A stretch of DNA of 64,000 nucleotides, from positions 92,109 through 156,108 of the forward strand of contig CAZWZF010000008.1 of assembly GCA_964638715.1 (NCBI GenBank), read 5' to 3'. Position 1 is the first letter of the stretch; each line of letters begins with the position of its first letter. This DNA comes from an uncultured bacterium. Its GTDB lineage: Bacteria; Armatimonadota; Hebobacteria; CAIYQO01. This document shows, in pieces, positions 18,387 to 55,272 of this stretch. The notes beneath the pieces are model-generated. The model was not told the DNA's origin, searched no databases, and worked only from the letters and a program-made list of their open reading frames with translations. A program made the position numbers and the translations under genes.

Positions 18387-18407
18387 AAGTGGACTCCTGA
18401 ATAACAG

Positions 18408-19865
18408 TTATTTCACCGTCTTTTCGGCTGTACGTGCGCCGCGATCCGGGTAGTTATCGATAATGTCACCATGCCCGGTAGCACGGGGATCGCCTGTACG
18501 TACCAACTCAGCAGACAATTTCCGGTCGAGTTTTCGTTTTATTCCAGTATAGTGAAGTTTGTCAGCAAGATTTATCATTTGGTTCGGATCCCGGCGATTG
18601 TCATAGAGTTCTTCGGCAGGACGCAACCCGGCGTAAGCCTTCCACATAGGCGCCACCACTGGATCATCCTGGTGATTCATCATATAATTCAGTGCAGGTC
18701 CTCCATCGGCAGCCGCTGGCGAAAGTTCTGGTTTGTAATTCCGTATATAGAGGAAATCGCGGGTATGCAATGCGCGGCAAGGATATAGGCTGCCGCCATG
18801 CCGTTCACGGACGACAATAGTATGGTCACACTCTGAATCCACTATACCTTTCTTACCCGACTTCAATATTCTTAGCAGACTGTGTCCTGTCATATCTGTG
18901 GGGATAGGCAATCCAGCCGCAGCCAAAAAGGTTGGCGCTAAATCGCAAAGACTGACAAAGTCGTCTATTACACGTCCCGATTTAATATGTTTACCCCACC
19001 GAATTGCCATCGGCATGCGAGTGCCACTGTCATAAAGATTGCACTTAGCACGCGGGAACGGCATACCATTATCACTGGTCACCACAATCAATGTGTCGTC
19101 AAGGCGACCACTTTTCTCCAGAATATTAAGAGTCGCGCCAAGTTCAGTATCGAACGCCTGAACTTCAGCATAGTAATCCGCCAGGTCTCCGCGCACTTCG
19201 GAGGTATCGGGCAAAAAGGGCGGAACAGGCACAGTTTTCTCGTCAACAGTTCCTTTCAACCAATGTTGATTGTAGGGTCGGTGTGGATTGTTGCTGCCGA
19301 ACCAATAACAGAATGGCGTCTCAGCGGGTAACGCTCCCAGAAATCCCGCAAAATCCTGTGCGGGTGGTCCGGCCGGGTTGCGAGTGCGTCCACCGAGACG
19401 AAAATCACCAGGACCAAGCCCTTTATCTTTCACACCGACGGCATAGCCGGCAGTCTCAAGCAGATCGGGATAAACTGCGAACTTCTTATCGAGAGGCCCG
19501 TTGAGATTTACAGCTTCCTCCAATCGGTAGGGATATTGCCCGGTGAGGATACCGGCACGGGACGCGGTACAGGTAGGCGCGGCGCAGTAGGCATTCCTGA
19601 ACAGCACCCCTTCGCGCGCAATGCGATCGAAGTTAGGGGTCTTTACCGCCGGATCGCCCAAACAGGATGCATGCCCCCATCCCCAATCATCGGCAATAAT
19701 CAGTATTATATTGGGACGTTTTGGTGTTGCCGTAATAGCCCATAATGCACGGGGTAACGCCATAGCGGCGAGACCAATACCAACTACTTTCAAAAAATCA
19801 CGGCGTGTTAAAGAATTATTCATTATATTCATGTTATCTAATACAAACTTACTATTATGTTTCAT
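18408..19865 (-). CDS. Sulfatase (S1 family) with twin-arginine (Tat) signal peptide.
   Basis: SLTRRDFLKVVGIGLAAMALP (Tat motif) then NIILIIADDWGWGH...CAAPTCTASRAGILTGQYP. Intermediate GC content. The true start may be the internal MNIMNN. Confidence 0.9.
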   Translation of the reverse strand: MKHNSKFVLDNMNIMNNSLTRRDFLKVVGIGLAAMALPRALWAITATPKRPNIILIIADDWGWGHASCLGDPAVKTPNFDRIAREGVLFRNAYCAAPTCTASRAGILTGQYPYRLEEAVNLNGPLDKKFAVYPDLLETAGYAVGVKDKGLGPGDFRLGGRTRNPAGPPAQDFAGFLGALPAETPFCYWFGSNNPHRPYNQHWLKGTVDEKTVPVPPFLPDTSEVRGDLADYYAEVQAFDTELGATLNILEKSGRLDDTLIVVTSDNGMPFPRAKCNLYDSGTRMPMAIRWGKHIKSGRVIDDFVSLCDLAPTFLAAAGLPIPTDMTGHSLLRILKSGKKGIVDSECDHTIVVRERHGGSLYPCRALHTRDFLYIRNYKPELSPAAADGGPALNYMMNHQDDPVVAPMWKAYAGLRPAEELYDNRRDPNQMINLADKLHYTGIKRKLDRKLSAELVRTGDPRATGHGDIIDNYPDRGARTAEKTVK

Positions 19866-19880
19866 AAATATATCTCTTTT

Positions 19881-22800: not shown

Positions 22801-25490
22801 ACAGTGACAGCGATGGCAGGATTTTGCAGTTTAGTCATTGGAATACCTGTCATCTGCGCAGTCAGAATCTCACCAACAACAAGCGGTTGTTTCAGGACAG
22901 TAATAAGAGTGTCACCATCATAAATTCGTGTTGTGAATGTATAATTTCCTGCTGCGGTGTCTGATGAAATTGATATTGGCAAATCAATATTGCTGACTTT
23001 ACCAACTTCAACATTAACTGTTTTTGTTTCTACTTTCGGCCAGGTTCCGTCTACCGTGGCGACAATCTTCGCGGTAAACGCTTTGTTGAATATTGCCGGC
23101 AATGTTAAAACTGCCTTACCTGATGACCCACGTGCTATTGATGGTAATATCAAACCACCATCAACAGATTTTAATATTCCGGTGGCGGTTTTCGCGTTAT
23201 ATAATCCTGTGACTTCTTTATCAAAAATCAATACCATCGGGTCAAGTGTGGCGACCACCATTGACGCACCGGCAGGGGTAATACGGTCGGTGCGACCATA
23301 AATATCCTGCATGGTATATTGCGCGTCCGCATTTACTGTGAATGTTGTTGGGGTACCAGGTTCACGCATATATAGATAACATATAGTCTTACCATCACGG
23401 GCGTAAACGTATGCAATTGTTTTATCAGTTGGTTGAAATGCCAATTTAAAATCCGCGCATTCTACTGCCTGTACAAAATTATAATACGCCATTGTTTTCA
23501 TCATTGGCATCAGTGACGCGCCGCGCTGGTCAGTACCAAAAGCACCGCGTCCCCAATTATTATCTTTTATACTATCCGCAACCCGTGGTCGGTCTACATA
23601 TTGCATCCACTGAAAACCATCACCGGGGAACTCGCCGCGTAGGATAGCGTTACTACCCAGGTTTGACCCGGCCTCATTAACATACATCAGGAAATAAGTT
23701 ATACGATACATGTCATGGGCATGGGCATCAAGCATTGATGTTATCAAGTCGCGACTGCTTTGCAACTGGTCATTACCACCAACAGCAGCAAACTCAGTTG
23801 ATATTAAATGACGTTCAATGCCCAGTTTTTTCAATTCCCTTTGTAATCTCTGCTGTCCATCCCACACAACTCCGGATTGATATACATGGGTATCAAAGAA
23901 ATCTGATACTTCATATAATTTTTCTTTTAATATCAGATTAACACCGTCATCGCCGGCATTAACACCCCAAACCATCATCCCTACCGGCAAATCGGGGAAC
24001 TCTTTTTTAATTGCCGCGTAGGCTTTTCTTTGTAGTTCCAGGGTGCGGGCATCAATAAAACGCTCTAATCCTGAAGGAACCACTTGGACGATACGATTTT
24101 TATTGGCGCGAATGTAGGCAACAATATATTCCACATAGCCATCTATCTCAAAACCTTTGCAACCGGGATGAAATGGGTCATCTATAATAGCCCAATCCGG
24201 AGCGTTTCTTGACATATCCCCCCATGGGTGATTTGGAGTTCTGCCGCGAATCTGTTCAAGGTTTGGACAATATACCATCTTGGGAAACTCTGGATCGGGT
24301 TTAATAGTTATCGGTCCGCCTTTCACGGGTTGCGCGTTTCTCCAACCATTATAATCCCAGTTATGCACTAAAGATGTGCCCATCTTATCCAACAGTGACT
24401 GCCCTTCATGCTTTGAATCACTATTCTTAAATCCCCCGCCTTCAGCAAAAGATATAAAACGGCATTTATCGTATTCATTTACCCCGGTTTTTCGCGGATT
24501 CACCACAGCATAAGTGATTGTGTCTTCAGCAATCACCTTGTCACCATCCAACAATTTTGCATTCAGGAAAAATTCACGCCCAACTTCTTTTGCTGATTCA
24601 TCAGCTATTAAAGTTGACAGACGCAAATTTTGTGTGCGTTTCGGGTCAAGATGCCGGTCAACAACCGGTGCCGCACCATCAAAAGCAATCTCGCCACTAG
24701 CAATTTTAAATTTCTCATAATCAGTTATTTCATACCGTATCACTGGCTTCTGTAGAGTTCCAATCGGCTTTTTATCATTGGCATACAATAAAAAGTCAAA
24801 TCTGAAAGGATCATCAGAAAAGAAAAGATTAGCGTTTTCCGCCGTACTGACTTCTAACGAATATCGGCTTGCGGCTGATGTTGTTTTTACCTGCGCAACA
24901 TTTGCTGCGACATCTGATACTGCTATGCGGACATCGGTGAAATAACATTCACCACGACTCATAGCCTTTGGCCAGCACAATCGCAAACGAAAAAAATCAC
25001 CAGTTACATTTTTAACAGCATTGTAATTTTTCCATAACAGACCTTCCTTTGTCATAGTGTGGCGAAATTGCGGTATTTGCCGTTTATCATCCCAGGGCAG
25101 CCAGGTCCAATCGCCGCCGTTATTTGCCAATTTACCATCTTTATCACAGGGGATAATTTCAAATGCGGCAGAATATGAAAAATCTTTCTGTGCGTCATAA
25201 TTATCCGCACCCCACAGACTGATCTTTACCGGCTTACCGGGATTTTTAAGTACCGGACTAAGCCAGGCGCTATCCGCCTCTTCGTCTTTTAATTGTTTTA
25301 TAAGCAGACTTTTACCACCGGCGCGCCGGGTGATATCAGAAACGGTGGCATTGTTCACCGCAGTCCAATCCTTGCCGCCATCAGCAAATGTGGTTTCGTA
25401 TAGAACTTCTGCCGCATTGCTTCCAACACCAGCTATTAACGTTACCATACATACCATAAACAGCCTCTTAATAAGATGATTAATACGCAT
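19881..25490 (-). CDS. Giant secreted multidomain protein (1869 aa). Contains a CBM9-like domain, a long coiled-coil segment and TIM-barrel-like regions. Function unknown.
   Basis: Signal peptide MRINHLIKRLFMVCMVTLIAGVGSNAA. Mid-region DLSDWNLDELIPIPY...WDDKKLYFAAEITDNVPV resembles CBM family 9. A KIEALKAADAELNAWAAKDQK...EIAKMRNE heptad-like stretch follows. AT-rich coding. First gene of the AT-rich block. Confidence 0.7.
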   Translation of the reverse strand: MRINHLIKRLFMVCMVTLIAGVGSNAAEVLYETTFADGGKDWTAVNNATVSDITRRAGGKSLLIKQLKDEEADSAWLSPVLKNPGKPVKISLWGADNYDAQKDFSYSAAFEIIPCDKDGKLANNGGDWTWLPWDDKRQIPQFRHTMTKEGLLWKNYNAVKNVTGDFFRLRLCWPKAMSRGECYFTDVRIAVSDVAANVAQVKTTSAASRYSLEVSTAENANLFFSDDPFRFDFLLYANDKKPIGTLQKPVIRYEITDYEKFKIASGEIAFDGAAPVVDRHLDPKRTQNLRLSTLIADESAKEVGREFFLNAKLLDGDKVIAEDTITYAVVNPRKTGVNEYDKCRFISFAEGGGFKNSDSKHEGQSLLDKMGTSLVHNWDYNGWRNAQPVKGGPITIKPDPEFPKMVYCPNLEQIRGRTPNHPWGDMSRNAPDWAIIDDPFHPGCKGFEIDGYVEYIVAYIRANKNRIVQVVPSGLERFIDARTLELQRKAYAAIKKEFPDLPVGMMVWGVNAGDDGVNLILKEKLYEVSDFFDTHVYQSGVVWDGQQRLQRELKKLGIERHLISTEFAAVGGNDQLQSSRDLITSMLDAHAHDMYRITYFLMYVNEAGSNLGSNAILRGEFPGDGFQWMQYVDRPRVADSIKDNNWGRGAFGTDQRGASLMPMMKTMAYYNFVQAVECADFKLAFQPTDKTIAYVYARDGKTICYLYMREPGTPTTFTVNADAQYTMQDIYGRTDRITPAGASMVVATLDPMVLIFDKEVTGLYNAKTATGILKSVDGGLILPSIARGSSGKAVLTLPAIFNKAFTAKIVATVDGTWPKVETKTVNVEVGKVSNIDLPISISSDTAAGNYTFTTRIYDGDTLITVLKQPLVVGEILTAQMTGIPMTKLQNPAIAVTVRSLSDTTMTGKVSIANKFFGADYEPSVMEQAYTVTPRGTTEIRFPISREQANLATSYEMRATIADKSGFNITCEDDVSFQASLKTNTPITVNGDLSDWNLDELIPIPYEKWYNGPRDPKEFSGKFYSRWDDKKLYFAAEITDNVPVVNGKEQLFWNDDNIMFCLYPWAWHMGESLNTGYYREHLGPIQGGKASFLRAGYVPSGPAMPDGAEIAVKRTDTGWIYEWAYTKASLYPIKLEKGGAFRLSMSVWDQHDTNKKTQEDWGKFSWLTFSGFNSSVNALPNLWRQFQMVDNTEALEAVWKSSVNKTAQQRQAIEKFALDGTCDNAVFTAKQAKYKGKIEALKAADAELNAWAAKDQKCIESQKLVADLDAEIAKMRNENKTETTDYKKIAQRRWQAFVDAQKVRNDHATPEHQQMREDINNMKSELIIDALYNLDTVPAVKTMTDKYRTSITEQQMALTAYNKERGMTTPIAYLQTQPKPYFKPGNKLPPLTRYGWVMPFELNKEFADNWGYALPSGGYLSSQRLKQIANPESDLAKTISLMKANPGKYKLEVTCDRFDPPNPPADLWTRDKDGILLNAQAKSLDGTEWHPGMNTVISPEVSDQYWIDAGAGRAKPIAEIRKLVPVSIILNGGEWGLGVWGFAGSVWMQDPKIKKAIDEYKAKGLSRIEYLDDKTGNAQKLIANEVKKAVPDRDLYVYYTSGGSGHKDRYWGWADWGPSYKPMRGVSDQPSIECYLHSMNTGFDGNQDLLSMSLNAIGQQLALGDTLSYNWFWAKRYDTSMRQYRGFLKCMYVMGTLGGNAGTYNQPDFNASFKLNTVPDWMMQQMALGHVHALFTHLEDYIRNGDLVDEGKYKHIWSVEQPAYELLPKELEKTVIAKGKVNVLPMGRPFRVVARKHRNKAEWLVEAWTADTKGGEDKQYDATVNIPGAGEITLKARVGGSTYLVSLADGKPVAKLLDPDEDNPSAGFKM

Positions 25491-25491
25491 T

Positions 25492-31151: not shown

Positions 31152-31163
31152 TATTAACCCCTT

Positions 31164-31391
31164 TTAAATAGCTGGTGGTGTTACCCATTCTTTATTTTTC
31201 TGGATTATAATGTTTTGTGATAATGCAAGCAAACGCGGTTCTAAGTCTGCAAAATCAAGTGTGTTTGGCTGAGTATCACCTTGTGCGCACATTGCCGCCA
31301 CGCAACCTGCCGGGCACCCGCCGCAGACTACGACATCATATTCACCGATTACGGGAATGCAGGACCGATAGTCGAGACTGTTAACGCTCAT
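31164..31391 (-). pseudogene. Chimeric remnant of a FAD-dependent oxidoreductase. The N-terminal ~30 aa (GEYDVVVCGGCPAG type) is joined directly to the C-terminal ~40 aa.
   Basis: Translation ...IPVIGEYDVVVCGGCPAGCVAAMCAQGDTQPNTLDFADLEPRLLALSQNIIIQKNKEWVTPPAI. The C-terminal part is near-identical to the end of ORF 33234..34544. Its DNA (31171-31302) is a ~130-nt direct repeat of 33231-33362. Confidence 0.6.
31171..31302. repeat. Direct repeat (~130 nt, about 90% identity by eye) of 33231-33362, the 3' end of the FAD-oxidoreductase gene.
   Basis: Both copies were aligned by eye. They bracket the GC-rich sulfatase plus gene fragments. Confidence 0.6.
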
Positions 31392-31409
31392 GACAATAAC
31401 TCCTTACAC

Positions 31410-32828: not shown

Positions 32829-33093
32829 GTTCTGTACTCCTATGCGTAACAGGGAAACCTTTGGGCAACCCCATGCCAGGATGCGGCGGCGATAAGTGAT
32901 AAACGGATTGCCTCACCTTGGGGAAATTAACCCCGACGTGCCATAGTTGCCCCTGATTTTCCACCATTAGCAACTCCAGTCCGGTGCGCCGTGCTGACAA
33001 CGCAGTGGCACAGCCTGCAGGCCCGCCACCGCAGACGTCGACATCATATTCACCTATAACCTGACTATTTTTATCTAACAGTTTGTATTTCAT
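32821..33093 (-). pseudogene. N-terminal fragment (about 60 aa of homology) of a FAD-dependent oxidoreductase, then diverges and stops.
   Basis: VIGEYDVDVCGGGPAGCATALSARRTGLELLMVENQGQL matches the N-terminus of ORF 57802..59250 (ARDIPVFGEYDVVVCGGGPAGCAAALSARRSGMSVLIIESQGQL). Confidence 0.55.
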
Positions 33094-33152
33094 TTTATTT
33101 ATGTGACAGTGTGATGCAAAAAATTACGTATCGAAAAAATTCGAAACGATCG

Positions 33153-40639: not shown

Positions 40640-40653
40640 TGTTAACGTTAACC
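40640..40653. promoter_or_regulatory. Candidate LacI-family operator TGTTAACGTTAACc (13/14 palindrome), 18 nt upstream of the 37083..40622 start.
   Basis: Sequence read directly. Central CG with TGTTAAC/GTTAACA half-sites fits the generic LacI/GalR operator TGnnAnCGnTnnCA. Confidence 0.55.
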
Positions 40654-42853: not shown

Positions 42854-42881
42854 GTAGAGACGCATGGCCGTGCGTCTCTAC
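42854..42881. repeat. Hairpin repeat GTAGAGACGCA-TGGCCG-TGCGTCTCTAC (11-bp perfect arms) in the 29-nt gap between GH31 stop and next start.
   Basis: Read directly. The right arm contains the GH31 stop codon. Second copy at 45326-45353. Confidence 0.6.
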
Positions 42882-45325: not shown

Positions 45326-45353
45326 GTAGAGACGCAAAATCTTGCGTCTCTAC
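45326..45353. repeat. Second copy of the hairpin repeat, GTAGAGACGCA-AAATCT-TGCGTCTCTAC, upstream of the GH31 gene. A partial third right arm (CGTCTCTACAG) sits at 45388-45399.
   Basis: Read directly. Arms identical to the 42854 copy, spacer differs. Confidence 0.6.
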
Positions 45354-45393: not shown

Positions 45394-46353
45394 CTACAGT
45401 TCCGATTGAACAAACCTTACTTCTGCCAAGCGCATACTATTGTCGCCAAAGTTTGATGTTATTACCATTTTGACCCATTTTGCCTTTGTTGATCCGCCGG
45501 TAAATGGATAAAATTGCGCCCGCCATGTTGATTGCGTTTCATTTCTAAACTCAGCAGGTGCACCATTTACCGCTGTGTATGTTCCATTCAAGTTGGTTGT
45601 AGCATCAATTGATGATGTCAAGGTTATCCCTTTTACTGCCCGGTTTGGATAAGAAGTGCCTTCATAATAGTTCCAGATACAGATACCAGACAAATTATAA
45701 TTATCACCAAGATTAAATAAAATGTATTTATTTAACGCGCATTGCCATACTTTTGCTGTTAAGTAGCTATGGTCAGGCCAGGTTGATGGAGCTTGGTCAC
45801 CTGTATTCAACGGCTTGGTTAATCCTTCGCCATCAATAGCTAATAAAGGTGTCCCGGAGTCAGAATATGCAAATACCGGCTTAACTATAGTCCATTTGTA
45901 TGGATCACCCAATGAGCAATGACCATCAACAAAACTTTTGATTACTTTACCGCTATGGCGCGCATCAATATCATTATCTTTGCCATCCATTGTCAGCCAG
46001 GTTGCGCTGGTATCAGGTATAGTACCAACGGCCATATTTGAACATTTAACAGCATTGTAAATAAAGCCTGGCAATACAGTTCTGCCGGCAGACGGACAAA
46101 TTTTTATACCATCATCAACACTGATACTGGTCCAGAATGTTGTGGAAGATGGTAATATCTCCTGATGGTCCTGGCAATACATTTGTGCGGATACTGCTAT
46201 TTGCCTCTGGTTGCTCATACAGGTTGTTTGCCGCGCTTTTTCTCGTGCCCGGGCAAACACCGGGAACAGTATGGCGGCCAAAATGGCAATTATGGCAATC
46301 ACGACCAGCAGTTCAATAAGGGTAAAACCTTTTCGTGAATTAAATTTATACAT
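45394..46353 (-). CDS. Prepilin-type N-terminal cleavage/methylation domain protein (DUF1559 pseudopilin-like) with C-terminal discoidin/F5-8 type C (CBM32-like) domain.
   Basis: N-terminus [44 protein letters not shown] (class III signal/pilin motif G-F-T-L-I-E). DUF1559 H..DGH motif (VDGHC). C-terminus ...WVKMVITSNFGDNSMRLAEVRFV is discoidin-like. Confidence 0.8.
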   Translation of the reverse strand: MYKFNSRKGFTLIELLVVIAIIAILAAILFPVFARAREKARQTTCMSNQRQIAVSAQMYCQDHQEILPSSTTFWTSISVDDGIKICPSAGRTVLPGFIYNAVKCSNMAVGTIPDTSATWLTMDGKDNDIDARHSGKVIKSFVDGHCSLGDPYKWTIVKPVFAYSDSGTPLLAIDGEGLTKPLNTGDQAPSTWPDHSYLTAKVWQCALNKYILFNLGDNYNLSGICIWNYYEGTSYPNRAVKGITLTSSIDATTNLNGTYTAVNGAPAEFRNETQSTWRAQFYPFTGGSTKAKWVKMVITSNFGDNSMRLAEVRFVQSEL

Positions 46354-46389
46354 AAAATTTCCTCCTCAAAGAAATATGAACGATAATAA

Positions 46390-47403
46390 TTAAGGCGTGT
46401 AGACGAATCGAACTTCACCAAGCCCGGCACCACCACCCCAATGTGAATTGATATATATTTTTACCCATTTAGCTTTTGTAGCTTGTCCGCTAAATGTATA
46501 ATATTGTGCTTTCCACGGATTCGTTGTTTCATTGCCAAATTCAATAGGTGCTCCAGGAATTACAGCCCATACACCATCTGAACCATTTGTTGAATCTAAT
46601 GATGAACTGATAGTTACCGACCTGAGTGATCGGTTTGGCCATGAGGAATTTTCATAATAATTCCAGATAGTGATACCGGTAAGATTGTATGTACCGCCCA
46701 GATAATAAACTATCCAATTTCCACTACTCGACGGCCACCAATAATTTTCATTACCTCCAGAGCCGGAATTGGTTTGAGTTGGCCAGGTTAAAGGTATTGA
46801 ATCTCCGGTGCTTAATGCTTTCGATAATCCAATGCCGTCAGTAGTAGCAGCAAATGAAGAACCTCGTGTACCTGCGGCAGGACCACTGGTTGCCACACAA
46901 GTCGGCTGAATAATATAGTATTGAAATGGTTTCGATGCCGCACAATGACCGTCAACATAGCTAAGTACCAGATTTCCACTGTGACGCGGGTCCATAGCGT
47001 CATTTTTTCCATCGCAGGTCAACCATACAGCTGACGCGTCCGGTATTTTTAACGGGTCGCCGATGGCGGTACCTGAACATATAGCAGCATTATAAACATA
47101 TCCGGGCAGGACATCCCTGCCTGCTGTCGGGCATATCTTCACCCCATCATCAACTTTTATATCATTCCAGAAAGTTGCTGATAAAGGCAGCGTTTCGTCA
47201 TGGTCCTGCGCGAACATCTGAACCGATGCAGATATTTGCCGCTGATTACTGGTACAGGTAGTCTGCCGTGCTTTCTCCCGCGCCCGGGCAAATACCGGGA
47301 ACAATATCGCGGCCAAAATGGCAATAATGGCAATCACAACCAGAAGTTCAATCAGCGTAAATCCTGATTTTCGTTTGCCACATTTGGAATAGTGATGATA
47401 CAT
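46390..47403 (-). CDS. DUF1559 pseudopilin-like protein with C-terminal discoidin (CBM32-like) domain. Tandem paralog.
   Basis: [44 protein letters not shown] and ...WVKIYINSHWGGGAGLGEVRFV. Perfect TGTTAACGTTAACA palindrome 29 nt upstream of the ATG. Confidence 0.8.
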   Translation of the reverse strand: MYHHYSKCGKRKSGFTLIELLVVIAIIAILAAILFPVFARAREKARQTTCTSNQRQISASVQMFAQDHDETLPLSATFWNDIKVDDGVKICPTAGRDVLPGYVYNAAICSGTAIGDPLKIPDASAVWLTCDGKNDAMDPRHSGNLVLSYVDGHCAASKPFQYYIIQPTCVATSGPAAGTRGSSFAATTDGIGLSKALSTGDSIPLTWPTQTNSGSGGNENYWWPSSSGNWIVYYLGGTYNLTGITIWNYYENSSWPNRSLRSVTISSSLDSTNGSDGVWAVIPGAPIEFGNETTNPWKAQYYTFSGQATKAKWVKIYINSHWGGGAGLGEVRFVYTP

Positions 47404-47431
47404 AATAAATACCCCCTTAATAAAAATATTT

Positions 47432-47445
47432 TGTTAACGTTAACA
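47432..47445. promoter_or_regulatory. Candidate LacI-family operator TGTTAACGTTAACA (perfect 14-nt palindrome), 29 nt upstream of the 46390..47403 start.
   Basis: Read directly. Followed (minus sense) by AAGGGGGT Shine-Dalgarno and ATG. Confidence 0.6.
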
Positions 47446-47587
47446 GAATATTGCTAATATTAATTATACCACTGTGTTTGTATGGTGTAAATAGGAATTT
47501 AAAAGAATTTAAAAATAAAAAATCGGGGTGGCTTGCACACCTTAATAGGCAATAGAGCCACCCCTAAATAATTGTATTCGATTCAGA

Positions 47588-48730
47588 TTATTGCAGAATT
47601 CCCCATTTTTTCTTCAGGTATTCATATATGATATTGCTATCAGATGTTGATAATGCAGGAGAGAAACACAATACTTCTGAAACATCACCTGTATAATAAT
47701 CACCACCTTGCATTCCTCGTTTGCCAACACTAAATCCATAGATTGAATAATTGTTGGTAGTAGGAATGCTGCTAAAAACGCAGACACCAGCACCTGGGCC
47801 TGCCTGAATAGCATCTTTTGTTAACTGTTTTGGTGTCAGATAAAAACCACCTGTATTTTCATAATCAGAATAATAAGTTCCGCCATTTAATCCACCGGCA
47901 CCGACAATACGACCCATTTGAGTTGCGTTAGGACTGTTTGATACTGTAAATACACTCCACTTTGCTGACTGGGTTGCACCCACTGCACGAAAATCTACTT
48001 GCATACCACAATTAGTAACACCAGAAAATGATATTGTCGGTTTGCCATTCATCCCTGTTGCTGACAATATCGGCGAAATAGTAGCAGGAGTCAAATCACG
48101 TGCTTTACCAGACTGGTCTTTCCATAAAGTAACCGCACCAGTTGTTGCATTTGCTACAACACCCATATCTGCCATTACCCAAAATTGCAAATTATTCTTT
48201 GATATCGGACATGGTACAAGGTCAAATGAACTGCCTGCCTCGGAATGACCATCTACATAGCTGGCGACAGCCTTGCTGCTATGCCGATTAGTGTCAATGT
48301 CAGTTACAGAGTTTAATATATTTACACCACCCGCGCTATCTGCAGTCATTAGCACTTTTGCTGGGTTATCAATATCACTTGTTACCCGGTCTGACAGCCA
48401 ACTATTATAACCATATACAGAAATAGAGTTATCACCACTTTTAGAAGCAGACGGACATTCCCAAGATTTGCCGGAAATGCCATTGCTGCCGCCTAATGAA
48501 GTTTTCCATGTGCCGCTATTAGGCAATCGCTGTTCGTGGTCCTGCGCATACATAGTCATAGCTATCGCTAATTGCCTCTGGTTGCTGGTACATACCGTCT
48601 GTCGGGATTTCTCACGCGCCTTGGCGAATACCGGGAATAATATCGCGGCCAAAATGGCAATTATGGCAATCACGACCAGAAGTTCTATCAGGGTAAAACC
48701 CTTTCCTTCTGTTTTGTTTAACGTTATCAT
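47588..48730 (-). CDS. DUF1559 pseudopilin-like protein with C-terminal LamG/ConA-like lectin domain. Tandem paralog.
   Basis: [44 protein letters not shown] and C-terminal ...[30 protein letters not shown] (LamG-like ending). Confidence 0.8.
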
Positions 48731-48753
48731 TATCAGTCTCCTCTTAATTTATT

Positions 48754-48800
48754 GTACCAGATGGTACGGTCAGTAATCAATTATCGCAGTTTGCGATAAT
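48754..48800. promoter_or_regulatory. Two short inverted repeats, GTACCA-GA-TGGTAC and ATTATCGCA-GTT-TGCGATAAT, in the 74-nt spacer between DUF1559 genes 4 and 3.
   Basis: Read directly. Could be an internal terminator/attenuator or an operator within the array. Confidence 0.3.
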
Positions 48801-48804
48801 CATG

Positions 48805-49950
48805 TTAAAGTGCGTATTTCGCCTTTAAATATGCCATTACTTTATCAATATCGCTTTGAGACATATCATCGTGATAACACAATATTTCACAAACTTGCAT
48901 TATAGGACTTTTATCAGGATTTTCCCATCCAAGTGTAAGAGGACTAACAACACTGACAGTACGAAAACGTCCAACTCCAAATAGTGATGTTTTTCTGGTT
49001 GGTGTGATTTTTACTGTTGCTGCATTAAAAGCTAAAGGGAATGGACCTGTTGTATCTGTCCAACTAATTGAAGTGCCATTTGCGACATCTGGTGCACAGC
49101 CTTTTAAAATAGTGCCAGTCTGACATTTATCTGTCATGTTGTATACTGTAAAGCATGTAAAAGTAGATATAGAAAGTGGTGTTGCCATTAGACTGTTTGT
49201 TCCCGCCCCTGAATTGTTTTGAATAGTTGTAAATGCGGAATAACCATTTAAGGCACTGGGAGTAACAGTAGCACCGTTTCCGGCAGGATAAAGATCATTT
49301 TTATAACCAGATTCATCAGACCATTTTTTCAAAATACTACTACCACCAGAGGTAATATTCTCCGGCATCAACCAGAGTACCAGATGTCCAGATACCGGCG
49401 GAAGGCGTAACTTTAGTGTATTTGATGTGCCAACAACAACGTGGCCATCTAATGCTGACATGATGGCTTTACCCGAATGTCTTTCTGCTATTAATACCTG
49501 GTTATAGATACATCCAGGAACTTGATATGATGAATTAGTGGTTTGTACCAGAGAATCGCCGGTTAGTAATATTCCCGACGGGTCATCTATTTCGCCTATC
49601 GATGCTGGTTGACCGGTGGATGTTTTACCCAGAAACTGGTTGTAACCATATTCCGGTTTACCGGCACTACCCTCGTCATTCGTGGTCGGACAATCAAATA
49701 TTTTCGGGTCCAATCCGGTTAGCGCAAGCGTCCAACCCTCGGCGGGCGGCAATGTTTCTTCATGATCCTGTGCATACATCATCATAGATGCTGCCAATTG
49801 TTTTTGGCTGTTAGTGCATGTGGTCTGATTAGCCTTTTCTTTTGCCCTGGCAAACACCGGGAAAAGTATCGCCGCTAAAACAGCAATAATGGCAACTACA
49901 ACTAATAGCTCTATCAGTGTAAAACCATGCGAATGAGCATTATTTTTCAT
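48805..49950 (-). CDS. DUF1559 pseudopilin-like protein with C-terminal LamG/ConA-like domain. Tandem paralog, first of the array.
   Basis: [38 protein letters not shown]...VCEILCYHDDMSQSDIDKVMAYLKAKY. TGTTAACGTTAACA palindrome 26 nt upstream of the ATG. Confidence 0.8.
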   Translation of the reverse strand: MKNNAHSHGFTLIELLVVVAIIAVLAAILFPVFARAKEKANQTTCTNSQKQLAASMMMYAQDHEETLPPAEGWTLALTGLDPKIFDCPTTNDEGSAGKPEYGYNQFLGKTSTGQPASIGEIDDPSGILLTGDSLVQTTNSSYQVPGCIYNQVLIAERHSGKAIMSALDGHVVVGTSNTLKLRLPPVSGHLVLWLMPENITSGGSSILKKWSDESGYKNDLYPAGNGATVTPSALNGYSAFTTIQNNSGAGTNSLMATPLSISTFTCFTVYNMTDKCQTGTILKGCAPDVANGTSISWTDTTGPFPLAFNAATVKITPTRKTSLFGVGRFRTVSVVSPLTLGWENPDKSPIMQVCEILCYHDDMSQSDIDKVMAYLKAKYAL

Positions 49951-49975: not shown

Positions 49976-49989
49976 TGTTAACGTTAACA
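49976..49989. promoter_or_regulatory. Candidate LacI-family operator TGTTAACGTTAACA (perfect), 26 nt upstream of the first DUF1559 gene (48805..49950).
   Basis: Read directly. Identical to the 47432 site. Confidence 0.6.
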
Positions 49990-50081: not shown

Positions 50082-51290
50082 TTATATTATATTTTTATCT
50101 CTATTAAACTTTTTGGCTGGTCCGGTTGAGTTCCGCGGAATAAAGGATGTAGGGAGAGTAATTCTTTGTATTTCTTTGTTATGTTCAATTATCTGACGAA
50201 TCAGCATGCGGGTGGCTTCGCGGCCAACATCTGCTAATGGCAGGTTGGTAGTGGTGACATTTATCCCTTTCACCGGGTCAAGTACCGGAAAACTGTCATC
50301 ATGCCCCACTAAACTGATATCTTCCGGCACGCTAATTCCCTGTTGTTTAAGGTCATTATATATCATTTGTGCCATATAATCATGATGGGTAAAAACTGCG
50401 GTAATTTGTGGATTGGTAATTAGGAATTTATTAAATGCAGTCATACTGGCAATGGGATAATCCCAATCCCATGGACAGGCGTACAAAGCAGAATCCGCGT
50501 CGATGCCGGCATCCATTAGCGCTTTGCCATATCCTGCCAACCGTTGCTGGTAACAATAATATTGTGATTGCTGCTCTGGGAAATGCAGAAAATGCCGGTG
50601 ACCGAGTTCTATCAAATGCTGCATTGCCGCGTAAGCGGAAGACGCGTCATCGGTTAATATCGCAGAACATCCATCCGTAGGTTCAATAATTGTAACGATA
50701 GGCCGGTCAAAAAAGTTGGACTCAGCACGCAGCATATTAACGATATACGCTTGTTCATGTGGTTTTGCCTGCAGCAATGCACCGTCTATATCACCATGGC
50801 AAAATACAGCAGGCAAAGATTCAATCATGTCATAAGGAAACAACTCTTCATCTGTTTTACCTGGCCATATTAACGATTCTATCAACTCAGTTACAGGTTC
50901 CTCTTCTGAATGAGGATAACTGACATAATTAGTATGAACGGAATATCTTTTCAACACCGCAACTGTCATTATACTGTCAAAAATCGGACCATAATAAGCT
51001 GATGCCGGATATCGGGTAAACAATGGCGGAAAAAACAACCCGATGGTATGATTTAACGCGGTAATGCCATGTCGGCGAAGTACCATCTGCCGCGCCATTT
51101 GATTTCGAGCCGGGTCATATCCAAGTCTTTTAGCCACTGCCAGTATCTTCTCACGTGTCTTAGCGGCAACATAACTGCTGCCATTCAACGCCCGTGAAGC
51201 AGTCATCACACTTACGCCGCATTCCTCAGCAACGCTATGCAGATTAACCTGTGAATCCTGAACTTTTTGTTTTTGAGTCGACTTGGCCAT
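50082..51290 (-). CDS. LacI-family transcriptional regulator.
   Basis: N-terminal HTH VNLHSVAEECGVSVMTASRALNGSSYVAAKTREKILAVAKRLGY, then a periplasmic-binding-protein-like sugar-binding domain. An imperfect copy of the palindrome lies 18 nt upstream of its ATG. Confidence 0.85.
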   Translation of the reverse strand: MAKSTQKQKVQDSQVNLHSVAEECGVSVMTASRALNGSSYVAAKTREKILAVAKRLGYDPARNQMARQMVLRRHGITALNHTIGLFFPPLFTRYPASAYYGPIFDSIMTVAVLKRYSVHTNYVSYPHSEEEPVTELIESLIWPGKTDEELFPYDMIESLPAVFCHGDIDGALLQAKPHEQAYIVNMLRAESNFFDRPIVTIIEPTDGCSAILTDDASSAYAAMQHLIELGHRHFLHFPEQQSQYYCYQQRLAGYGKALMDAGIDADSALYACPWDWDYPIASMTAFNKFLITNPQITAVFTHHDYMAQMIYNDLKQQGISVPEDISLVGHDDSFPVLDPVKGINVTTTNLPLADVGREATRMLIRQIIEHNKEIQRITLPTSFIPRNSTGPAKKFNRDKNII

Positions 51291-51307: not shown

Positions 51308-51321
51308 TGTTAACGTTATTA
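51308..51321. promoter_or_regulatory. Imperfect copy TGTTAACGTTAtta upstream of the LacI-family gene itself (autoregulation candidate).
   Basis: 12/14 match to the palindrome, 18 nt upstream of the LacI ATG at 51290. Confidence 0.45.
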
Positions 51322-51425
51322 TACCGGTTTGATAAAATATTAGCAAGTTAATGATTAGAGAACTTTCTCTCTGTATGTCCTGTTATATATTAAACTTCAG
51401 CCAATAATGTTATAATTTCAGCCAG

Positions 51426-52289: not shown

Positions 52290-52358
52290 AGGCTCTTACA
52301 AAACCCGGTGGGACAGACACCATCATGGCTTCGCCACTCGGTGTCAGTCCCTGATTTT
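52287..52358. repeat. Copy B of the ~72-nt conserved intergenic element. It starts at the AraC stop codon and lies between convergent genes.
   Basis: tagaggctcttacaaaacccggtgggacagacaccatcatggcttcgccactcggtgtcagtccctgatttt, followed by a T-rich run. Confidence 0.5.
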
Positions 52359-52435
52359 CTCTCAAAAAACGATAATCAACCATCTAAAATATAGAATAAA
52401 TATAGGTTTTGCAAGAGCCTGTATAAAATGTCATT

Positions 52436-53839
52436 TTATTTTCTAACTGTTAGTTCTTCAAATGCAGGTTCAACATCTCTATCAATTTCAAGTTGCTTAA
52501 TTAATAGTTTTGCATCAAGCAACTTGGGTGAAACATCAGCATTTATACTTAGCGCCGCCGCCGTCCCGGCCGCTTGTCCTGTAGCCATACATGTTTGTTG
52601 AATACGCAGGCTTGATTCGGCAATATGTTCTGCGGAAATACATCTGCCTGCAACCAGAAGATTATCAACATTAATTGGAATTAAACTGCCATATCGAATA
52701 TCAAAATAATCTCCAGTCTTAAATCTTTCATGACGTATTTTATAACTTTCAGATTCCCTATCAACCGCAGGTGCTGTATAACTGTCAGCTGGCCAAATAT
52801 CAATATCCCATGAGCTTCGTGCCACCCCATCTGAATATTTATTAAATTCAACTGCGTCTTTTTCAGTTGCCGTGGCTAATCCATGAATCCGACGCGAAGA
52901 ACGCAAACCAATATGTGAAGAAGTATCAACAAGATAGGAATTTTCACATCCCGGCACATAATTCTTATAATAATCTGCTACCTGCCATGCCTGTTCGCGT
53001 CCTTCACGTTCTGCACGGGTAAAATCAAATGGATCCAGCGGATTCACTTTTAACACGCGACTTGTCACCAGCAGTAATTCATTTCTATATGACGGCATTT
53101 GCCACATCCACCATTGAGCATAACCTTTGACACGACCCGTTGTAATTACAGGTGTGGTATATTTACCGCTTTTCATTGCAGCCTGAAATCCATCTTCTAT
53201 CTGCTGTGCAAACTCAGGAGTGTTGAAATTTTCCGGCTTAATCGCGTTGCCAATTCGCAGAACTTTTGTGCATGCCATCGCCCATGGATTTTTCCCATCT
53301 CCCTGATCCCAAGGAACTCTGGCATAATTACATACTATCGCGTCTCCGGTAGCGTCAATCACCTGCTTAGCGGATATAAAACCAGTTCCCGCCTTTGTTT
53401 CAACAGTAATTCCAATGATAGTATTATTTTCTACTATCGCTCCGGAGCAATACGCATGATGCAGGATATCAGCACCTGCCTCTGTTAACAGGTCATCCCA
53501 TACATACTTTACGACTTCCGGGTCAACGATACCCCGAATTTGTCCACTGCCTATACCATCAAGTTTTTCAGAAATCCCGCCGCGTTTTTTCAAACCACGC
53601 GCATATTCATGCCAGATACCTTGAAAATCCACACCATTAGTGCTGAGTACAACACATACAAGCTGTGATACGGTGGCGCCGCCCAGATAGCCGTCTTTTT
53701 CGATAATCAGCGTTTTTGCGCCAAGCCTTGCTGATGCTATTGCTGCCGCACACCCCGCCGGCCCGCCGCCGCAGACGACGACATCATATTCACCGAGTAC
53801 GGGGATATCACGCGCGGGTTCTTGAATGGTAGTTTTCAT
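52436..53839 (-). CDS. FAD-dependent oxidoreductase (PF12831-like), AT-rich paralog.
   Basis: IPVLGEYDVVVCGGGPAGCAAAIASARLGAKTLIIEKDGYLGG. The track start at 53878 overlaps the upstream paralog. The internal ATG (MKTTIQEP) at 53839 abuts the upstream stop. Confidence 0.8.
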   Translation of the reverse strand: MKTTIQEPARDIPVLGEYDVVVCGGGPAGCAAAIASARLGAKTLIIEKDGYLGGATVSQLVCVVLSTNGVDFQGIWHEYARGLKKRGGISEKLDGIGSGQIRGIVDPEVVKYVWDDLLTEAGADILHHAYCSGAIVENNTIIGITVETKAGTGFISAKQVIDATGDAIVCNYARVPWDQGDGKNPWAMACTKVLRIGNAIKPENFNTPEFAQQIEDGFQAAMKSGKYTTPVITTGRVKGYAQWWMWQMPSYRNELLLVTSRVLKVNPLDPFDFTRAEREGREQAWQVADYYKNYVPGCENSYLVDTSSHIGLRSSRRIHGLATATEKDAVEFNKYSDGVARSSWDIDIWPADSYTAPAVDRESESYKIRHERFKTGDYFDIRYGSLIPINVDNLLVAGRCISAEHIAESSLRIQQTCMATGQAAGTAAALSINADVSPKLLDAKLLIKQLEIDRDVEPAFEELTVRK

Positions 53840-55272
53840 ATTGTCTTCCTTTGCGGATTGATTGCGATCAAGCCGCATAGTTCCGGGAATGCCGGCTCGA
53901 TGTCGCGGTCCTTTTCCAATTGTGCAACCACGAGCGCCGGATCGAGTTCACGTGGAGTTGTGTCCGCCTGCAGGCTTAGCGCCGCCGCAGTCCCTGCCGC
54001 CTGACCTGTTGACTGGCAGGTTTGCTGGATTCGCAGGGATGCCTGGGCGGTGCGTTCGGCGGAGATGCAACGTCCTGCCACCAGCAGGTTATCGACACCG
54101 GCAGCCACCAGGCAGCCATAACGAATATCGAAGAAATCACCCGCAAGCATTTTGGCTTTCCGCAACTGATAGGCATCCGATTCCCGATCCACGGCAGGTG
54201 CACTGTAACTCTCCGCCGGCCAAATATCGATATCCCAGGAACTGCGGGCGATACTATCTGCGTATTTACGGAACAACAACGCGTCGTCGCCCGTCACCGT
54301 CGCCATGCCGCGGATGCGCCGGCTGTCGCGCAGACCAATGTGGGCACTGGTATCCAGCAGGTAAGCCTGTGCATAGCCTGGAGCGAAACGTTTCAAGGCA
54401 TCAGCACATTGCCAGACCTGCTCGCGCCCTTCGCGTTCGGCGCGGGTGAGATCCCACGGATCGAGCGGATTGACTTGCAGCACACGGCTGGCGAACACGT
54501 TCATCTCTGTCCGGTACGGCATCACACTCGGATGCACCCAGTTTGCCATACCATAGCTGATGCCGCGGCCATTAGCCAGAACCGGCGTGTCATACTCGCC
54601 ACGAGCGACAGCAATCGCCACAGCCTCTTTAGCTGCCAGCACCGCCTCCACCGAGTAGCCCTCTTCCGGCCAGTGAACATTGCCCATACGGAAAACCTTG
54701 GTCAAGGATTGACCCCAGGTATGAGTTCCGTCACCCTGCTCCCAGGGAACACCCGCCGCCGCGCAGATAGCACCGTCCGCCGTGCAATCAATAACCCGTT
54801 TGGCCAGAATCGCCTGCCGTCCGGCACGGGTCTCGACCACTACTCCGCGACAATCCCCGTCCTCGACGATGGCATCGGCGCACAAGGCATGCAGTAATTG
54901 CCGCGCACCCGCCGCCATCAGCAGATCGTCCCAAGCATACTTTACCACTTCGGGATCGACACCACCGCGAAACTGAGGTGGCTGCCCCACCAGCGCACAG
55001 GCTCCTTCACGCTGCCGCAACGCGCGAATCCACTCGTGCCAGATGCCTTGAAAATCCACGCCGTTGGTACTGAGAATATGGCTCACCAGTTGCGAGACCG
55101 TCGCTCCACCCAGGTAGCCATCTTTCTCGATGAGGAGAGTCTCCGCGCCAAGTCGAGCCGCGGCAATCGCCGCCGCACACCCCGCCGCACCGCCGCCGCA
55201 GACGACGACATCGAATTTACCGAGTACGGGGATCTCGCGGGCAGGTTCGTTCACTGTTTGTTGCTCTTTCAT
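53836..55272 (-). CDS. FAD-dependent oxidoreductase (PF12831-like), GC-rich paralog directly adjacent to the AT-rich one.
   Basis: IPVLGKFDVVVCGGGAAGCAAAIAAARLGAETLLIEKDGYLGG. Collinear with 52436..53839 but with strongly G/C-biased third codon positions. Confidence 0.85.
   Translation of the reverse strand: MKEQQTVNEPAREIPVLGKFDVVVCGGGAAGCAAAIAAARLGAETLLIEKDGYLGGATVSQLVSHILSTNGVDFQGIWHEWIRALRQREGACALVGQPPQFRGGVDPEVVKYAWDDLLMAAGARQLLHALCADAIVEDGDCRGVVVETRAGRQAILAKRVIDCTADGAICAAAGVPWEQGDGTHTWGQSLTKVFRMGNVHWPEEGYSVEAVLAAKEAVAIAVARGEYDTPVLANGRGISYGMANWVHPSVMPYRTEMNVFASRVLQVNPLDPWDLTRAEREGREQVWQCADALKRFAPGYAQAYLLDTSAHIGLRDSRRIRGMATVTGDDALLFRKYADSIARSSWDIDIWPAESYSAPAVDRESDAYQLRKAKMLAGDFFDIRYGCLVAAGVDNLLVAGRCISAERTAQASLRIQQTCQSTGQAAGTAAALSLQADTTPRELDPALVVAQLEKDRDIEPAFPELCGLIAINPQRKTI

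Follow-up and report, generated by a model that had tools for sequence, protein, structure and literature searches.

All genes of the window, by which we mean the whole 64,000-nt stretch analysed here on a 170-kb contig of an uncultured bacterium, lie on the minus strand with similar GC skew, and the same enzyme families are present in its AT-rich and GC-rich compartments. The AT-rich middle (19881-53684), characterised by GC3 (0.27-0.46), identity to a sister metagenome-assembled genome (MAG), tetranucleotide signature and Pfam content, is a locus for degrading sulfated glycans. It encodes a giant 1869-aa protein, a PL8 chondroitinase-family lyase, URO-D-like, sulfatase, FAD-oxidoreductase, DUF5054 and GH31 proteins, two DUF4838 proteins (one with a fused FGE domain), four prepilin-like DUF1559 proteins, LacI and AraC regulators, and most of the FAD-oxidoreductase at 52436-53839. 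The DUF4838+FGE-sulfatase protein (37083-40622) is 92% identical in amino acids to a sister MAG fragment in contig L016, which carries the same downstream genes. Besides the LacI-family regulator (50082-51290, Pfam), a LacI-type operator-like palindrome, TGTTAACGTTAAC(A/C), was found at 40640-40653, with other copies at 25434-25447, 47432-47445, 49976-49989 and 51308-51321 (repeat families D15, D16, I4 and I5). These five matches, against 0.11 expected, all fall within the AT-rich block, which is apparently under the control of its own LacI-family regulator. A terminator-like hairpin element (52300-52357, repeat family D12) lies directly 3' of the FAD-oxidoreductase at 52436-53839, and a second copy (36935-36992, 86% identical) lies 3' of the DUF4838-FGE gene.

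The left GC-rich block (1-18386, per-gene GC3 0.63-0.79, Pfam) reaches past the window's left edge to about -1,900, ~20 kb in total, and carries a DUF4838+FGE-sulfatase fusion (1639-5244), a beta-helix protein, a heparinase II/III-like protein, a LamG-domain protein, a sulfatase, an alpha-L-fucosidase and a further sulfatase. The right GC-rich block (53840-64000) extends to ~74.3 kb, again ~20 kb in total; it holds three FAD-oxidoreductases, a 369-aa protein, an RraA-like protein, three URO-D-like proteins, a DUF386 protein and a 508-aa protein, followed by GH42, DUF6259, more URO-D-like, BNR and GH36 proteins. Within it the RraA-like gene (59186-59929) is itself AT-rich (GC3 0.39), with 80% amino acid identity to a GC-rich homologue in contig L098.

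GC3 averaged 0.37 (range 0.27-0.46) over the 17 genes of 18408-53839, embedded sulfatase excluded, versus 0.64 (range 0.39-0.79) over 17 flanking genes (Mann-Whitney p = 2e-6). The 1-kb GC profile ran at ~0.58 on the left, ~0.43 in the middle and ~0.56 on the right, and GC1 and the tetranucleotide signature shifted between compartments too. Across 1-2.2 kb, independent assemblies of different samples (ENA, NCBI, Logan and JGI, different assemblers) reproduced the three junctions at 100% identity, in 6, 3 and 5 contigs. The sharp switches in GC content are thus confirmed as real. The mosaic goes on leftward beyond the window, and the contig as a whole crosses composition boundaries many times. 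The earlier note had described an AT-rich block between GC-rich flanks, interrupted by a single GC-rich sulfatase (31410-32828, GC3 0.71), and had proposed GC3 profiling and tetranucleotide analysis as checks. That description stood, and the signatures of the AT-rich block and of the GC-rich parts fell into separate groups.

The two junctions and the embedded sulfatase

The left compositional step lies at a 21-nt spacer (18387-18407) between a GC-rich sulfatase (16992-18386) and the sulfatase at 18408-19865. GC3 was 0.68 where the former begins (5') versus 0.43-0.47 where the latter ends (3'), and the junction sequence was identical in 3 independent assemblies. Since the best-fitting single change point, at 17721, was weak (log-likelihood ratio 22 versus 42-60 elsewhere), the left switch is stepwise, not sharply located, and its placement at the spacer is approximate. 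The sulfatase at 18408-19865 is of intermediate composition (GC3 0.46), uniform along its length and not a visible chimera. The gene next to it contains an internal AT-ish patch.

The right junction lies within the FAD-dependent oxidoreductase gene at 52436-53839 (467 aa, GC3 0.33), which makes this gene a chimera of a native body and ~52-57 initial codons similar to the GC-rich type. Overall it shares 89% of its amino acids with its closest relative, the ortholog in the AT-rich sister MAG, whereas its first 45 codons are 65-76% identical in nucleotides to the sister versus 79-83% to GC-type genes. The change point in GC3 was 53669 and similarity shifted at a breakpoint of 53678-53684, which puts the switch ~155-170 nt into the AT-rich gene. 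Among informative sites, 28 of 44 lying 5' of the breakpoint and 67 of 420 lying 3' of it agreed with the GC type (Fisher 4e-11, with the breakpoint chosen post hoc). The GC-type 5' tract (53678-53839), with the junction at its inner end, encodes the FAD-binding GxGxxG region; the reading frame is preserved, and the native 3' part and the terminator-like element downstream are kept. Identity between the tract and the available GC-type genes is only 79-83%, and the tract could derive from later gene conversion by a paralog instead of the original crossover.

The adjacent GC-rich paralog, the 478-aa FAD-dependent oxidoreductase at 53836-55272, is the last gene of the right block, with a GC3 of 0.63 that is flat along the gene. 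It overlaps the chimeric gene by 4 nt and shares 60% amino acid identity with it, and its relatives in other organisms are 88, 83, 80 and 79% identical, one of them (79%) labelled Victivallales. The cluster of the 88% relative has a longest listed contig of 70,463 nt, the same length as is listed for a cluster member of the other paralog type, and both types may therefore occur on one contig in another lineage. Local duplication of the two adjacent genes followed by opposite drift was considered and rejected; they are old homologues (60%) joined by recombination. Of the switch positions claimed in the earlier note, the right one, exactly at 53836/53839, was thus displaced into the AT-rich gene; for the left one the step was upheld but not its location inside the sulfatase at 18408-19865.

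The embedded sulfatase was bounded by GC3 change points at 32811 and 31422. It is 93.6% identical in amino acids and 88.9% in nucleotides to a gene in contigs L099-L104, which are uniformly GC-rich (GC 0.61, GC3 0.70-0.83). Nucleotide similarity is confined to 31412-32811, a single ORF, and other genes shared with the L099 lineage are only 61-71% identical. This pattern indicates that the sulfatase was imported as a single gene, and the L099 lineage would be the best candidate for its source or a relative of its source. GC3 is 0.71 in the window copy versus 0.83 in the relative, and where the two differ, the window copy more often carries A/T, at 91:38. Both sides of the gene bear scars, examined with blastn and blastx. 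In the upstream scar (32829-33243, repeat families D11 and D2), an 87-92% copy of the junction between RraA 3' end and FAD-oxidoreductase start at 59182-59268 is succeeded by an N-terminal piece of a FAD-oxidoreductase whose frame is broken; the fragment at 33153-33243 either derives from the 3' end of the RraA-like gene at 59186-59929 or is a sibling of it. Other assemblies annotate the downstream scar (31146-31409, repeat families D8 and D2) as an ORF of 75 aa. It is a FAD-oxidoreductase relic in which an internal deletion has joined the N-terminal motif to the final ~40 codons, and in its 3' part it matches 33216-33382 as an imperfect direct repeat (~170 nt, 85%).

This repeat around the sulfatase resembles an insertion-site duplication, which speaks for import by a since-decayed mobile element (integrative element, transposon or phage) instead of recombination between homologous genes; the block boundaries beyond the window were looked over cursorily. 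However, the repeats are gene fragments and not element ends, and the right joint lies within a homologous gene whose reading frame is preserved. No tRNA was found in the window, no integrase or transposase Pfam match in the window or its extensions, no inverted terminal repeats at any junction, and no plasmid match. We consider such an element unlikely.

Native and probably imported compartments

The baseline for native composition was 5-6 housekeeping genes from one syntenic array on the same 170-kb contig. GC3 was 0.40-0.43 for GlmU, Prs and MetK, and the array Iso_dh-GlmU-Prs-hyp-MetK-NTP-transferase kept its order and its AT-rich composition (GC3 0.29-0.49) in two related species. The sister MAG was uniformly AT-rich across its MetK contig, FAD-oxidoreductase operon and DUF4838 contig. 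Gene order in the AT-rich block was common with sister contigs L016 and L097, at 81-88% nucleotide and 89-95% amino acid identity; housekeeping identity to the sister was 77-82% in nucleotides, with MetK at 91% in amino acids. Tetranucleotide signatures correlated at r 0.85-0.95 between the AT-rich block and housekeeping plus sister DNA, and at r 0.89-0.95 among the GC-rich parts and L099. The left block in particular reached 0.89-0.92 with the other GC-rich parts and the L099 lineage, versus 0.74-0.78 with native parts. The AT-rich housekeeping genes, the shared signature, the sister identity and the restriction of LacI-type operators to this block argue that the AT-rich middle block is this bacterium's own DNA, vertically inherited, with a host composition of ~42-46% GC. 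The two ~20-kb GC-rich blocks and the single sulfatase, in turn, look imported, as judged from sequence.

By flagging 18.4-53.85 kb, the earlier note had implied the opposite polarity, a foreign AT-rich 35-kb block from a low-GC donor in a GC-rich host. GC content does exceed 50% in more than half of the ~100 kb covered around the window, and 81-88% nucleotide identity to another MAG could alone also mean transfer. However, AT-rich composition is shared by the contig's own housekeeping genes, their counterparts in two related species and the three sister regions, the signature places the block with housekeeping DNA, and its divergence from the sister is about that of core genes. This polarity was largely refuted, and we regard it as very unlikely; the atypical DNA is that of the GC-rich flanks and the single sulfatase.

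Comparison with the sister also bears on whether all genes could be native and have diverged in place, through selection (e.g. expression-linked codon usage) or local mutation bias. The single strand, the similar GC skew and the shared enzyme families would fit such a history. However, the GC-rich URO-D and FAD-oxidoreductase are only 73% and 67% identical in amino acids to the sister's AT-rich counterparts, a near-identical relative of the embedded sulfatase exists in another lineage, and a GC3 gap of 0.3 separates genes 4 nt apart within one operon, with GC1 and tetranucleotide signature shifting as well. Divergence in place is accordingly highly improbable. An assembly or binning chimera, in which reads of GC-rich and AT-rich organisms were joined at conserved motifs, is hardly credible: the data are metagenomic and the right breakpoint lies within a highly conserved FAD-binding motif, a possible mis-join site, but the junctions are identical in 3-6 independent assemblies, the 170-kb contig crosses many boundaries, and reading frames and 4-nt overlaps are intact.

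Proposed history and comparison with known systems

The best explanation, which we hold to be quite probable, is a native AT-rich locus with higher-GC imports in and around it, stitched together by recombination. DNA of ~56-62% GC would have entered at least three times into or around the native locus (~19.9-53.7 kb), as the left block ending at 18386, the right block starting near 53680 and the sulfatase gene. The imports and the native locus draw on the same gene families; the DUF4838+FGE-sulfatase protein at 1639-5244, for example, is a xenolog of the native copy, 68% identical in amino acids over the full length. The likely route would be recombination between diverged homologous genes, without a mobile element, and the donors higher-GC bacteria with homologous operons. 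Neither large block could be matched to a donor among relatives; for left-block genes, the best relatives were 66% (DUF4838-FGE, versus L099) and 85-87% identical (heparinase-like protein). Since the GC-rich parts are uneven internally (GC3 0.39-0.79), each large block may represent several events, or be old and partly ameliorated. On the right, the sister has a compact AT-rich three-gene operon (~4 kb) between the BNR end and the chimeric-gene ortholog; in the window species the corresponding interval holds 14 genes, mostly GC-rich (~17 kb). This interval may have been replaced by a double crossover, the sister's BNR side being limited to the BNR 3' end, at which its contig begins (69 of 70 nt identical).

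The claim of the earlier note that the mosaic arose by acquisition and recombination, not by uniform vertical descent, was borne out by the relatives of the sulfatase and FAD-oxidoreductase, the decayed fragments and the chimeric gene. Best-hit lineages, which it had also invoked, did differ (MetK, Armatimonadota, 65-68%; GC-rich FAD-oxidoreductase, Victivallales, 79%), though MAG labels are weak evidence.

Horizontally acquired regions are reportedly recognised by atypical base composition and ameliorate gradually. Similarly, the blocks here depart from core genes in GC, GC3 and oligonucleotide signature, and the lower GC3 of the imported sulfatase and the lean of its differences toward A/T are as amelioration predicts. 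Unlike typical acquired regions, they come without tRNA, integrase or clean direct repeats, lie within translationally overlapping operons and contain homologues of adjoining or replaced genes. To homology-facilitated illegitimate recombination, and to xenologous gene or operon replacement through crossovers within conserved flanking genes, we see a likeness in the joint within a conserved coding motif, the in-frame chimeric gene, the lack of mobility genes and the shorter homologous operon in the same interval of the sister species. However, this is known here from one junction, at which either anchor may be the homologous one and the other the illegitimate one, and the 75-83% identity of the joint's two sides over the anchor is at the low end for such events.

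Porphyranase and agarase loci have reportedly moved into gut Bacteroides. As in such transfer of polysaccharide utilization loci (PULs), imported glycoside hydrolase, lyase and sulfatase cassettes here extend the catabolic range, and gene content beside the conserved core array varies between close relatives. Unlike a Bacteroidota-type PUL, there is no SusC/SusD pair and no conjugative element; transport probably relies on the prepilin-like DUF1559 proteins, a putative role. The many S1 sulfatases, PF12831 FAD-oxidoreductases, DUF1559/N-methyl proteins and DUF4838 proteins recall glycan degraders of the Planctomycetota-Verrucomicrobiota-Lentisphaerota-Kiritimatiellota group, whose phylum names the closest labelled homologues of these families carry. 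Unlike in those degraders, the host MetK is closest to Armatimonadota-labelled proteins, so that its sequence does not support membership in that group. Xenologous import by recombination is a known, ordinary kind of bacterial genome evolution.

Composition of the window and recurrence of its junctions

We found that GC content in 1-kb windows was ~0.58 at 1-18 kb, 0.43 at 20-53 kb, and 0.56 at 54-64 kb. The contrast was greater in the coding frame, with third-codon-position GC (GC3) averaging 0.37 (range 0.27-0.46) over 17 genes of 18408-53839, the embedded sulfatase left out, versus 0.64 (range 0.39-0.79) over 17 flanking genes (Mann-Whitney p = 2e-6). The embedded sulfatase (31410-32828) had a GC3 of 0.71, and the change points fell at 32811 and 31422. 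At the right switch lay a pair of FAD-dependent oxidoreductase (PF12831) genes, 52436-53839 and 53836-55272, which overlapped by 4 nt, differed in GC3 (0.33 versus 0.63), and encoded proteins 60% identical. The earlier note had described a mosaic passing from GC-rich to AT-rich and back, with a single GC-rich sulfatase inside the AT-rich block. Both features held, and the contrast was seen in the GC, GC3, and tetranucleotide profiles.

An assembly artefact was ruled out, since the right junction, left junction, and embedded-sulfatase regions (compared across 1-2.2 kb) recurred at 100% identity in 6, 3, and 5 contigs respectively, from independent assemblies of ENA, NCBI, JGI, and Logan samples. 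In the locus extending the window leftward (L105, window ~-17,000 to -1,900), GC3 shifted gene by gene from 0.30 to 0.66 across neighbouring sulfatase/CAZyme genes, and the patchwork therefore reached well past the interval flagged at first. Long antisense ORFs lay opposite real genes in the GC-rich parts, among them 1549-5439 (+), 8454-10211 (+), and 16267-17352 (+). These are the shadow ORFs usual in high-GC DNA rather than genes; the longest (1549-5439, 1296 aa), the one scanned, had no Pfam match.

Native and atypical DNA

The window spans 76932-140931 of ERZ4201038 NODE_45, a contig of 170 kb, which was followed rightward. GC-rich DNA right of the window ran to ~74.3 kb in window coordinates. 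Beyond it lay a GDSL lipase (GC3 0.21), an NTP-transferase, MetK (0.43), Prs (0.42), and GlmU (0.40). The order of the array Iso_dh-GlmU-Prs-hyp-MetK-NTP-transferase was kept in two related species, all of its genes were AT-rich (GC3 0.29-0.49), and MetK of these species was 95% and 91% identical to that of the window species. The genes after the core array were different in each of the three species. Compared to the housekeeping genes (GC3 0.29-0.43), the GC-rich blocks and the embedded sulfatase (0.57-0.79) were atypical, and the AT-rich block was not. In the metagenome-assembled genome (MAG; GCA_964573385.1) of the species with 91% MetK identity, here termed the sister, the Prs gene was split into two ORFs (L113 2887-3852), by a frameshift or an assembly error.

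The sister also carried counterparts of the AT-rich block on AT-rich contigs. On one (L016), DUF4838-FGE (formylglycine-generating enzyme), DUF4838-CBM9, and FAD-oxidoreductase genes stood in the window's order at 86-88.5% nucleotide and 92-95% amino acid identity; on another (L097), the ortholog of FAD-oxidoreductase 52436-53839 was 81% identical in nucleotides and 89% in amino acids. Housekeeping DNA of the two species was 77-82% identical, so the divergence of the AT-rich block was on a par with that of core genes. We also compared tetranucleotide usage after normalising it for base composition. Segments of the AT-rich block correlated with the housekeeping region, the sister contigs, and the third species (r 0.85-0.95), whereas the GC-rich parts correlated among themselves (0.89-0.95) and with a uniformly GC-rich lineage represented by L099 (0.90-0.93), but just at 0.73-0.83 with native DNA. 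Another 61%-GC contig (L116) reached just 0.61 with the GC-rich parts, so their grouping with L099 exceeded a mere GC effect. Based on one housekeeping array rather than the whole genome, we take the AT-rich block as native and the GC-rich DNA as atypical. The earlier idea that catabolic genes were acquired by recombination was kept in part, since the AT-rich interval to which the note had pointed is the native one.

Joints in and between homologous genes

The right switch did fall at the FAD-oxidoreductase pair, but not at the gene boundary (53836/53839) to which it had been assigned: the GC3 change point was at 53669. Within the AT-rich gene (52436-53839), the first 45 codons were 65-76% identical in nucleotides to the sister ortholog and 78-83% to GC-type genes; past ~codon 60 the values were 80-91% and 44-67%. 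When solely sites at which the sister and the GC-type gene differ were used, the best breakpoint, picked post hoc, was gene nt 156-162 (window 53678-53684), in the FAD-binding region. Upstream of it 28/44 sites sided with the GC type, versus 67/420 downstream (Fisher 4e-11, post hoc). From the switch in identity and the breakpoint it follows that this gene is chimeric. Its FAD-binding N-terminus came either with the import or by later conversion; the remainder of the gene, plus a terminator-like element downstream, is native. This 58-nt hairpin element occurred at 36935-36992 and 52300-52357 (86% identity between copies), 3' of the stop codons of two native genes, and is likely a shared terminator module. 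A joint within a homologous gene that leaves an in-frame chimera was seen at the right junction only.

The earlier note had called the pair paralogs. A recent tandem duplication was rejected, because the proteins were 60% identical in amino acids and each had much closer relatives elsewhere. Other organisms had relatives of the GC-rich member (53836-55272) at 88, 83, 80, and 79%, including one with a Victivallales label; for the AT-rich member, the sister ortholog (89%) was followed by proteins at 74% and 73% (P0003), then <66%. The two are homologues of different sources joined by crossover, one made chimeric. P0106, the relative at 88%, and P0326, a cluster member of the other paralog type, were listed with longest contigs of equal size (70,463 nt), and the same sort of match recurred for further members (55,463, 20,072, and 16,105 nt). 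From these matching longest-contig sizes, a pair of the two types probably exists in other lineages too. A metagenome search with the GC-rich FAD-oxidoreductase returned 9 loci, among them no close full-length relative with DNA; L120 (89% over 132 aa) was set aside as it appears rearranged.

Between the 3' end of the BNR gene and the ortholog of the chimeric gene, the sister had 3 AT-rich genes (URO-D and two FAD-oxidoreductases) in ~4 kb, whereas the window species had 14 mostly GC-rich genes in the corresponding ~17 kb. The window's GC-rich URO-D-like gene and FAD-oxidoreductase were just 73% and 67% identical, respectively, to the sister's AT-rich counterparts. The species with 95% MetK identity had different AT-rich genes after the core array; the comparison contigs were short. 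At the BNR 3' end, L097 1-70 matched positions 11152-11221 of the locus extending the window rightward (L107; ~window 70.9 kb) at 69/70 nt and then diverged abruptly, whereas core genes of these two species were ~80% identical. GC3 of the window's BNR gene fell to 0.40-0.55 at the 3' end; GC-rich DNA went on beyond, and the sister contig stopped there. The near-identity may stem from an exchange in the recent past or mark a second endpoint of recombination. We propose that a native operon segment was replaced by a larger homologous one via crossovers in shared genes, the second crossover presumably on the BNR side. The long operon at 53836-64000 and L107 11310-21263 contained three or four PF12831 FAD-oxidoreductases, several URO-D-like proteins, RraA-like and DUF386 (YhcH/YjgK/YiaL) proteins, and two proteins (369 aa and 508 aa) with no Pfam match; the sister had a compact version.

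The left switch was present too, but not inside the sulfatase 18408-19865 where it had first been read. GC3 rose stepwise from ~0.39 in the giant ORF to 0.46 in this sulfatase and 0.68 beyond a 21-nt spacer. A single-change-point fit gave 17721 with weak support, at odds with the step at the spacer, and the left junction is therefore stepwise and less sharply placed than the others. A chimeric sulfatase was rejected, its GC3 being flat except in the active-site region. In the first GC-rich gene (16992-18386), codons ~80-160 (~17,900-18,150) formed an AT-ish patch (GC3 0.45-0.53) that was 37-49% identical to the L099 homologue, versus 76-90% in the sequence flanking it. Intragenic mosaicism or a rapidly evolving loop may account for the patch. 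The most GC-rich gene of the left block (7803-10310) had a graded series of homologues at 87, 85, 74 ... 63% (the one at 63% labelled Planctomycetota) and 49% (labelled Armatimonadota), from which no donor could be named.

The embedded sulfatase was 93.6% (amino acids) and 88.9% (nucleotides) identical to a gene on 16 contigs of another organism (e.g. GCA_947462915.1, L099-L104), whose DNA was uniformly 61% GC with a GC3 of 0.70-0.83. The nucleotide similarity was confined to the ORF (window 31412-32811), and other genes common to that lineage and the window were 61-71% identical. Differences between the two copies ran 91:38 toward A/T in the window copy, consistent with partial amelioration. 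This lineage is the leading candidate for having supplied the sulfatase, or for being related to the supplier. Upstream lay an 87-92% copy of the junction between an RraA-like 3' end and an FAD-oxidoreductase start (original in the right block, 59182-59268), and after this copy an N-terminal FAD-oxidoreductase fragment with a broken frame. Downstream lay an FAD-oxidoreductase relic with an internal deletion, in which the final ~170 nt were an 85% repeat of how native FAD-oxidoreductase 33234-34544 ends at its 3' side. These fragments are footprints of recombination within the FAD-oxidoreductase family.

The two DUF4838+FGE-sulfatase copies, 1639-5244 (GC-rich) and 37083-40622 (native), were 68% identical, and each was about as distant (64-68%) from homologues in other lineages; they are therefore old homologues rather than local duplicates. 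A genome-contig search with the DUF4838-FGE pair gave, among the matches listed, mostly generic FGE-domain proteins, and loci L013-L016 were used. Fusions of ~1,200 aa joining DUF4838 to a C-terminal FGE occurred in several lineages (L013, L014, L015, L099) at 52-68% identity, with a weak GH20b-like N-terminal match, and were uncharacterised in the data searched.

Mobility, gene content, and meaning

The joints lay in, or between, homologous genes. No tRNA or tmRNA was found in the 64-kb window by ARAGORN, and no integrase, transposase, or other mobility Pfam family among window genes or the precomputed Pfam matches of the extensions. Direct repeats bracketing either large GC-rich block were absent from the window, the sole bracketing repeat being a 170-nt, 85%-identical pair of gene fragments around the embedded sulfatase. 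Plasmid similarity did not go beyond a 46-nt FGE motif match. Like a classical genomic island of the integrase/tRNA type, the GC-rich parts depart in composition from the host core, but the window has no tRNA neighbour, mobility genes, or att-like repeats round the large blocks. Unlike a Bacteroidota-type polysaccharide utilisation locus, it has no SusC/SusD pair, in that no window gene had a Pfam match to a TonB-dependent receptor (SusC-like) or SusD.

Functions were assigned from domain matches alone. The native block encodes a PL8 chondroitinase-family lyase, sulfatases, DUF5054, GH31, LacI and AraC regulators, two DUF4838 proteins (one fused to an FGE domain), four prepilin-like DUF1559 proteins, and a 1869-aa protein with a weak CBM9-like match below the Pfam threshold. 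The left import encodes a beta-helix protein, a heparinase II/III-like protein, a fucosidase, and more sulfatases; the right import encodes FAD-oxidoreductases, URO-D-like, RraA-like, and DUF386 proteins, GH42, BNR, and GH36. Judged by its domains, the gene set would suit an organism that breaks down sulfated glycans from hosts or algae. The LacI-type palindrome TGTTAACGTTAACA occurred in 5 copies versus 0.11 expected, all in the AT-rich block (25434-25447, 40640-40653, 47432-47445, 49976-49989, and 51308-51321), close to where operons begin and adjacent to the LacI gene 50082-51290; together they look like a self-contained regulon. A hairpin with an 11-bp stem (GTAGAGACGCA ... TGCGTCTCTAC) and no T-run was identical at 42854-42881 and 45326-45353, in the gaps flanking the GH31 gene, and may be an RNA-processing or stabilising element. 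At 45394-49950, the four prepilin-type N-methyl/DUF1559 genes stood in tandem (33-54% amino acid identity) with a common 139-nt 5' region, and one of the proteins bore an F5/8 type C lectin-like domain.

MetK of the host had clade relatives at 89-100%, then a gap to 71%, with named matches at 64-68% nearly all labelled Armatimonadota. Homologues of the catabolic genes were labelled Planctomycetota, Verrucomicrobiota, Lentisphaerota, and Kiritimatiellia, such MAG-protein labels being weak evidence. A literature search with the assembly accessions found nothing relevant. We regard as rather unlikely the broader reading that an unclassified freshwater lineage, possibly Armatimonadota-related, built much of its sulfated-glycan capacity by repeatedly swapping native operon segments for larger high-GC versions from other lineages, possibly other phyla as the PVC labels of the homologues suggest, anchored on short conserved motifs (FAD-binding GxGxxG, sulfatase CxPxR) with no mobile element. 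The phenomenon in the window belongs to a well-known and otherwise ordinary kind, with precedents in compositional islands, in amelioration, and in imports of catabolic genes anchored by recombination; what is new is this instance, in an undescribed lineage, with one joint unusually well resolved.

If true genome-wide, such swapping would be a distinct and predictable path for operon-scale transfer between distant bacteria. The window itself offers a cleanly resolved case in which imported DNA has entered working operons with no mobile element, and one of the joints is mapped to a few nucleotides in a conserved motif for cofactor binding. Moreover, composition alone can mislead, as in this window it is the minority composition that is native. 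Annotators of this lineage can now tell the inherited locus for glycans, with its apparent LacI-type regulon, from later additions.
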